A stretch of 40,414 nt of DNA from Leucoraja ocellata (lineage: Eukaryota), in NCBI GenBank assembly GCA_036785375.1, contig JAWMAR010001661.1, forward strand, positions 85,587 to 126,000, given 5' to 3'. Within the stretch, counting starts at the first letter, position 1. Each line of letters starts with the position of its first letter. Below, piece by piece: positions 8,858 to 10,258 of the stretch. The position numbers and the translations under genes were made by a program. The notes under the pieces are model-generated. The model was not told the DNA's origin and did not search any database. It saw only the letters and a program-made list of their open reading frames with translations.

Positions 8858-10258
8858 AATTGGGAAATAAAATGGAATGTTGGAAACTAAATTTTCTCTG
8901 CTATTTTAGACAATAGACAATAGGTGCAGGAGGAGGCCATTCGGTCTTTGAGCCAGCACCGCCATTCAATGTGATTATGGCTGATCTTCCCCAATCAGTA
9001 CCCCGTTCCCGCCTTCTCCCCATATCCCCTGACTTTGCTATCTTAATTTTAATTATAAAACAGGGTATCTCACTAATCCTTGAACAGAGTGGGAATTGAA
9101 ATCGGTGGCTTAGGGGAGGGTTTGAGTGACGTTCAAATTTACATTTGCATTTATTTAATTAAAACATTGATTTAGCAACATTGTGCATTTTCACTATTAA
9201 ACGTAGACTACTATATGACTTAAAACCTTTTCCTGTTAAAGTCACGAAGCAAACTCAGATATTGTTTTAATAGATTGCAGGTTGTAATTTATAATTGGTA
9301 TATTTTTTATTCGTTTCCTATCGGACAGAGATACAATGTTAATCATTCGTTCTTCAGTGCCGATGACATTGGGAACGTTAACTCGTTTTAAAGATGCTGG
9401 AAACGGAACTGAGCGTCATTGTATAAACATTCATTTCAATGGATTATTATTGAATTCATTAAGGCAATGGTGCACACAGACAAACATTGAAACCTGTACC
9501 AATTTATTTAATTATGAAGTATTTACATGTTCTTACAATTTATATGCTACATTTAGTTTCCAGAAGGTGTGGTACATAACCTCTATTAATTCAGATATTA
9601 TATTGAGAGAGTTATTTTAATCCTTATAATGTAATCTCATACATGTGTTTAATCTGGTGTGAATGTAATGTTATTGTCGGCTGGTTTGCGTTTCGGAATT
9701 TACTTGCAATTACTGTCGGCATACAAATGATCGGTATATTCTCGTGAGTGATGGGCCCACAAAATACAAAAAAACGTGTGTTATTTTAAGTGTGTTATTT
9801 GTTGTTAAATAACAGAGCTACCATTTCAATCCCATCCACCCCCTTAGTTGGTTTCGTCCGATGGACACATTTAAGGCCAAATTTCACGAACAAGATTGTG
9901 ATTGTTTATTTTTGTCTTCTCCCAAATTATGTTCGGGAGCCCGACATGGAAAACCCGTTACCCTTCCATTTTCTGTGATTTTGTCAGATAATCTCTGAAC
10001 ACATTTATAAAACAAAAACTCTTCCCTCTCCCTCCAAATCAAAAGTTTTGCCATGGGCATGCACAGTGGCCCAAGCGAAACCTACCTAAATTATTTAATT
10101 TTAATTAAATAAATGCAAATGTAATTTTGAACGTCAGTCAAACCCTCCTTTGAACCATTGATTCCAATTCCCACTGTTCACGGATTAGTGGGACAACTGT
10201 TCTATAATTCAAATAGCAGAGAAAATGTTGTTTCCAACATTGCGCATCATTTCACCAA
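8858..10258. repeat. Inverted repeat of about 160 bp (arms about 8858-9165 and 10098-10258), each with an octamer and TGACGT
   Basis: 9115-9162 matches the reverse complement of 10101-10148 at 46/48. ATTTGCAT at 9143-9150 and ATGCAAAT at 10113-10120. Confidence 0.9.
8907..9044 (-). mobile_element. CR1 3'-end fragment, (TAGACAA)n tail, inserted in the left inverted-repeat arm
   Basis: Same 3' UTR family as 39962-40414. It is absent from the right arm. Confidence 0.85.

Follow-up and report, generated by a model that had tools for sequence, protein, structure and literature searches.

The window, by which we mean the whole stretch of 40,414 nucleotides of Leucoraja ocellata DNA that was analysed, holds one split V-D-D-J-Cmu1-4-TM IgM cluster, in which the leader, V, J, Cmu1 and Cmu2 are all in open frame, two D segments lie between V and J, and Cmu2-4 and TM1 follow Cmu1. 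Its J-Cmu1 intron (6774-11030, 4257 bp) harbours, about 4 kb downstream of the VH promoter, two inverted arms of about 165 bp each that are some 84% identical in this cluster, a duplication far beyond chance (Table 1). These arms, the CR1 insert in one of them and a core matching at 46 of 48 positions had been reported in a preliminary description, and both the sequence and self-BLAST confirm them. When the arms are compared with each other, 27 difference events are counted in 165 columns, the best 48-column window has two differences, and in each arm this best core contains the octamer and TGACGT. Across clusters, the arms are disrupted by indels and 79-85% identical; two of the 40 paralogues have lost 66 bp of the right arm (10172-10237), a deletion that leaves the EICE position untouched.

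Table 1. Features of the inverted duplication and its IgM cluster, in window positions.
Feature	Position	Strand	Observations
Leader	5061		
V	5284-5587		
JH segment	6726-6773	+	5' context of the module
Left arm, outer part	8859-8908	+	8859-8906 matches 10211-10259 reversed, 83.7% over 49 bp (self-BLAST); deleted in 2/40 paralogues
CR1/LINE 3' fragment inside left arm	8909-9045	.	several other copies in the window; in both IgM subfamilies
Left arm, inner part	9046-9165	+	9046-9164 matches 10099-10214 reversed, 84.9% over 119 bp, E 3e-31 (self-BLAST)
EICE word GGAATTGAAA (Ets-IRF composite, GGAAnnGAAA)	9092-9101	+	sole EICE match in this intron
CRE half-site TGACGT, left	9127-9132	+	intact in 21/40 clusters
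Octamer, left copy (ATTTGCAT)	9143-9150	-	intact in 40/40 clusters
Unique spacer between arms	9166-10097	.	about 930 bp; changes at a rate of 0.37 (intron: 0.40)
Right arm	10098-10259	-	inverted match to left arm
Octamer, right copy (ATGCAAAT)	10113-10120	+	intact in 30/40 clusters; 4 parsimony changes in 8 bp
CRE half-site, right	10131-10136	-	intact in 38/40 clusters
EICE position of the right arm (GGAATTGGAA, a broken word here)	10162-10171	-	sequence read and motif scan
Cmu1 exon	11031-11327	+	3' context of the module

The fragment within the left arm, which we take to be CR1 from neighbouring RT frames, is flanked by ATTTTA at 8903-8908 and 9046-9051, judged by eye to be a target-site duplication. 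An old high-copy retroelement fragment (10262-10740), presumably Penelope-like and marked by a depth spike, adjoins the right arm and may have clipped it. The same intron contains a near-perfect 98-bp head-to-head inverted repeat (7179-7376), made by a common short repeat and missing from 25 of 40 paralogous introns and hence a recent insertion, and the window further holds a (TCTATGTG)-type 8-bp tandem array (32189-34270) and a 16/35-bp minisatellite (25079-25332).

Both octamers, starting at 9143 and 10113, are present where they had been placed, each with TGACGT (9127) or its complement (10131) at a distance of 10 bp. A scan with a panel of 12 motifs located, 41 bp from the octamer, an additional EICE word conforming to the consensus GGAAnnGAAA given in the available text of PMC4334403. 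E2A-type E-boxes (CA[GC][CG]TG) are absent from 8859-10259, the nearest lying at 8309 and 10671, and one CATGTG occurs in the spacer at 9642. The CpG observed/expected ratio is near 0.6-1.0 across the V-to-C region and is not specific to the module.

An exhaustive genome scan with a 24-bp core pattern, allowing up to two mismatches, returned 80 matches at 41 loci and none with the reversed control. Cmu2 lies within about 4 kb at 40 of these loci, and the 41st has V, J and Cmu1 before its contig ends. Within this genome, the core is confined to IgM clusters, its matches lying in the J-Cmu introns. Alignment of the paralogous clusters places both arms at the same intron position in all 40 complete V-J-Cmu1 clusters examined, namely that of the window and 39 of the other 40 loci, the remaining one being truncated within the spacer, where its contig stops. 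Cmu2 itself was found at 55 loci at 77% identity or more, and 15 of these lack the module, being partial duplicates that have no V and start downstream of Cmu1; two extra Cmu4 loci are likewise V-less, and in all 17 the match begins at 11716, past Cmu1. Two more patterns, one taken from the outer arm and one from its middle, matched 67 and 59 times, always at IgM clusters apart from two matches on contig C109. When the right arm served as query, a DNA search yielded 81 candidates, of which 40 were scored, and the loci listed (at least 30) show IgM intron flanks, while all 63 spacer matches are at IgM clusters (40 scored of 46 candidates); the exhaustive pattern scans cover what these two similarity searches left unscored. 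Clusters that we take to be IgW-type from their long C region gave no match to the module in ten stretches, no octamer in any of eight complete introns and none upstream of V in the five stretches where a V exon was found.

The C109 piece, which is about 65 bp long, 92% like window positions 8849-8911 and devoid of the core, is present in two segmentally duplicated copies 150 kb apart in non-Ig, repeat-rich DNA. It adjoins a truncated CR1 at that element's 5' end, to which it is fused, and continues into the left arm's own flank. Retrotransposition may have captured it from an IgM intron, with either direction conceivable. A 27-bp, 85% core-like match 3' of a light-chain C exon has neither octamer nor TGACGT and was set aside as a likely chance match. 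Dense tandem light-chain-type clusters, 10-15 kb apart, occupy contigs C531 and C384; as would be expected, two light-chain-type clusters carry an octamer upstream of V, and their V and J are apparently joined or closely linked.

The IgM clusters themselves comprise two subfamilies and one outlier, and many are germline-joined (V-J distance of about 320-720 bp, one fully joined) as opposed to split (about 1115-1190 bp). Downstream of IgM clusters, and in the same orientation, there are constant-region duplicates without V at 98-99% identity, including two on C1661 downstream of the window (about 136100-141600 and 167600-175800), which consist of Cmu3-Cmu4-TM1 and Cmu2-Cmu3-Cmu4-TM1. Seventeen orphan constant stretches share a 5' boundary at the window equivalent of 11716. 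Such orphans could be dead copies, or targets of read-through splicing or switching.

The two arms differ by 15-21% and the deepest paralogues by 7-9%, which would make the duplication older than the cluster radiation, by about a factor of two if rates were equal. We infer a single local inverted duplication that took place before the clusters of this genome radiated and was then spread by whole-cluster duplication.

The preliminary description had regarded the core as better conserved than its flanks and as selected. The former holds as a borderline excess in this cluster (permutation P=0.068 for the best window and 0.045 for the longest run) and fails elsewhere, being non-significant in six other clusters (P 0.11-0.87) and on majority-rule ancestral arms (P 0.17-0.31). 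The latter finds no support in a parsimony tree of the 40 introns (3892 sites, 0.40 changes per site), where both 48-bp cores together accumulated 31 changes where 38.7 were expected (P=0.21; a halving of the rate would have been detected with 86% power), counts that are blurred by gene conversion between paralogues and assembly errors and that include many germline-joined clusters. When only the 18 split, open-frame clusters are considered, the cores carry 20 changes against 22.5 expected (P=0.38). Individual motifs behave similarly: the left octamer has no change against 3.2 expected (P=0.10), both octamers four against 6.5 (P=0.34), both CRE half-sites five against 4.8 and the EICE sites five against 6.4. 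The only nominal signal comes from a left 36-bp stretch chosen post hoc (6 vs 14.5, P=0.049), and of all 48-bp windows in the intron, the one with the fewest changes (three; P=0.20 by permutation) falls within the spacer, at 9873-9920. Block-wide constraint on the core among paralogues is not supported, and the counts neither establish nor rule out constraint limited to a few bases.

The motif words are largely kept on at least one arm. Every one of the 40 clusters retains an intact octamer and an EICE, and 39 retain a TGACGT, the lone cluster without any also having a frameshifted Cmu1. The right octamer is broken in 10 clusters. For TGACGT, 19 clusters have a broken left copy, and a single cluster has no intact copy. 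An intact EICE is found on exactly one arm of every cluster, the left one in 22 and the right one in 18, and both ancestral arms, reconstructed by majority rule, had it. Against a background of 325 kb of non-IgM DNA and shuffled sequences, the chance per 165-bp arm is 1.4-4.5% for TGACGT and 0.6-2.5% for EICE, the latter uncorrected for a 12-motif panel chosen after the fact. Because 44% of 116 eight-base arm windows are likewise never broken on both arms (joint probability about 0.13), the retention of one intact copy is only suggestive.

We consider it an even chance that the module, a ~165-bp inverted duplication, acts as a small B-cell enhancer through its octamer, EICE and CRE half-site. 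The octamer would be recognised by Oct1/Oct2 and the EICE by PU.1/Spi-B together with IRF4/8, and the target of the bound module would be the VH promoter, which has no octamer and lies about 4 kb upstream. Partial redundancy would be expected between the two copies, the left octamer serving as the main site, and this proposed redundancy would explain why losses on a single arm are tolerated and why the core as a block is under no strong constraint. Counted in favour of an enhancer are the position in the intron, the octamer-less promoters, the left octamer intact in 40/40 clusters and an EICE on one arm in 40/40; counted against it are cores changing at the background rate, the post-hoc motif panel, the lack of an E2A-type E-box and IgW-type introns without the module.

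Shark VH promoters of IgH clusters are described as octamer-less in the available text of PMC2435157, and the same had been claimed for the promoter in this window; an exact octamer is indeed missing from the 300 bp upstream of the leader in all 39 clusters scored. It had also been suggested that the intronic octamer compensates for the missing one. The octamer-less promoters agree with this idea; however, the IgW-type clusters lack an octamer both in the intron and upstream of V, so a promoter without an octamer does not require an intronic one, and the compensation argument is weakened.

Between an enhancer and a neutral passenger, the balance is about even. According to the latter reading, to which we give somewhat less than an even chance, an accidental inverted duplication with an octamer-like word was copied together with the clusters and has been decaying at the background rate. 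This would fit the change rates of the cores, which equal the intron background, the non-significant core excess between ancestral arms, the repeated hits on the right octamer, and the CR1 insertion and deletions suffered by the outer arms. An octamer somewhere in a 4.26-kb intron has a background probability of 12%, and duplication doubles one such word. That all clusters carry the module is what their recent common descent (7-9% divergence) would produce. The passenger reading accounts less well for the occurrence of octamer, EICE and CRE half-site within 60 bp at a classical enhancer position, and for a left octamer unchanged in every cluster; the listed deletions of at least 10 bp also all miss the inner EICE-to-AT stretch, a weak point since such deletions are few.

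In catfish, the Emu3' enhancer is positioned 3' of Cmu. Its core in the channel catfish, with two variant octamers and a muE5 E-box, is functionally proven according to the available text of PMC1800861; the module resembles it as a fish IgH element with two octamer motifs, but is an enhancer candidate from sequence only and has no E2A-type E-box. Mammalian Emu contains Ets, PU.1, IRF and octamer sites, as far as the accessible part of PMC3972084 describes it, and the module shares with it the location in the J-Cmu intron and the close grouping of octamer, Ets/PU.1-type and IRF-type words, the last two represented by a match to the GGAAnnGAAA word only. Unlike Emu, which like catfish Emu3' uses an E-box (available parts of PMC3972084 and PMC1800861), the module lacks an E2A-type E-box and is duplicated in inverted orientation, sequence homology not being expected, and it lies in a setting in which elasmobranch VH promoters are octamer-less. 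It is best described as a plausible candidate for an IgM intronic enhancer, not filed as a member of the Emu class.

The mouse 3' regulatory region (3'RR) offers another parallel, in that its hs3a-hs1.2-hs3b palindrome also consists of inverted duplicates with octamer-factor sites flanking a centre in the IgH locus (available parts of PMC4000994, PMC9936319 and PMC4757795). The 3'RR, however, lies 3' of Calpha, spans about 25 kb and has near-identical hs3 copies around a central enhancer, as set out in the accessible text of PMC4000994, whereas the module is intronic, 5' of Cmu1 and 1.4 kb long, with arms 84% identical, no sign of compensatory change and no proven central element. Any likeness to the hs3a/hs3b palindrome would be convergent. 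The fuller proposal makes the module the first IgH enhancer of elasmobranchs, with an Oct/PU.1-IRF/CREB unit present as a palindrome in each IgM cluster, whose copies split the work between subfamilies (left EICE in 22 clusters, right EICE in 18) and convergently echo hs3a/hs3b; it appears unlikely.

The inverted geometry could itself be the function, with the arms pairing in nascent RNA or single-stranded DNA and so influencing splicing, hypermutation or inter-cluster switching, although we judge this improbable. Palindromic architecture does matter at the mammalian 3'RR, according to the available parts of PMC9936319 and PMC4757795, and folding predicts a long duplex between the inner arms here (-139.9 kcal/mol; the minimum free energy fold contains 150 long-range pairs), but such folding is expected of any inverted duplication. 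The arms, moreover, are only 79-85% identical and indel-disrupted, and they have not evolved in concert: at columns where the arms differ, seven derived states changed toward the other arm and ten away from it, and of the two columns changed on both arms one was concerted. Arm-to-arm conversion and compensatory pairing find no support.

Non-autonomous transposons with terminal inverted repeats (MITE-like) have inverted arms around a non-coding spacer, form dispersed families and create target-site duplications. The preliminary description had offered the inverted repeats of an old element of this kind as its alternative, and this explanation, for which the long inverted arms bounding the element in self-BLAST, the 930-bp unique spacer and the single non-Ig outer-left-arm fragment on C109 (in its two segmentally duplicated copies) speak, is largely refuted and in our view scarcely credible: in contrast to MITE-like families, copies lie inside IgM clusters only, three pattern scans (80, 67 and 59 matches) give nothing else outside them, the scored spacer matches lie at IgM clusters alone, the outer ends show no target-site duplication by eye in the flanks of four clusters, and the coreless C109 piece of about 65 bp runs into the left arm's own flank. 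By a hand binomial calculation, a 16%-diverged copy passes the 24-bp, two-mismatch scan about one time in four, a rate at which as few as ten surviving copies would be expected to leave a trace.

Outside this genome, metagenome scans for distant copies of the module found none, and an index of sequencing runs returned only near-identical holders, with no RNA run among those listed. Both arms are also covered by three runs that carry two other organism labels. These runs differ at 91-119 of 2295 places and, with 40 of 162 differences itemised, are too close in sequence to test constraint. Three raw RNA runs contain almost no Cmu1 reads. One contig run, guessed to be RNA, includes the J-Cmu1 splice joint 6772-11030 (GT..AG) as well as low-depth contigs at 9119-9528, 9567-9749 and 10197-10509, which reveal neither start nor strand and are given no weight here. 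A literature search of incomplete coverage, which does not assure novelty, found no description locating an elasmobranch IgH enhancer, and the available parts of PMC5192425 and PMC12227049 contain no enhancer or octamer passages.

The rare formation of promoter-enhancer complexes at octamer-less IgH clusters has been proposed as the basis of IgH exclusion in sharks, as stated in the available text of PMC2435157, and the 1.2-kb segment described here is a compact candidate for the enhancer in such shark-type exclusion. The clusters supply natural variants, with the right octamer lost in 10, EICE kept on the left or on the right, and the left CRE half-site lost in 19. If inactive, the module would be an ordinary old inverted duplication; if it is a palindromic Oct/PU.1-IRF/CREB enhancer, it would open a direct way to study how each B cell activates one of about 40 clusters.
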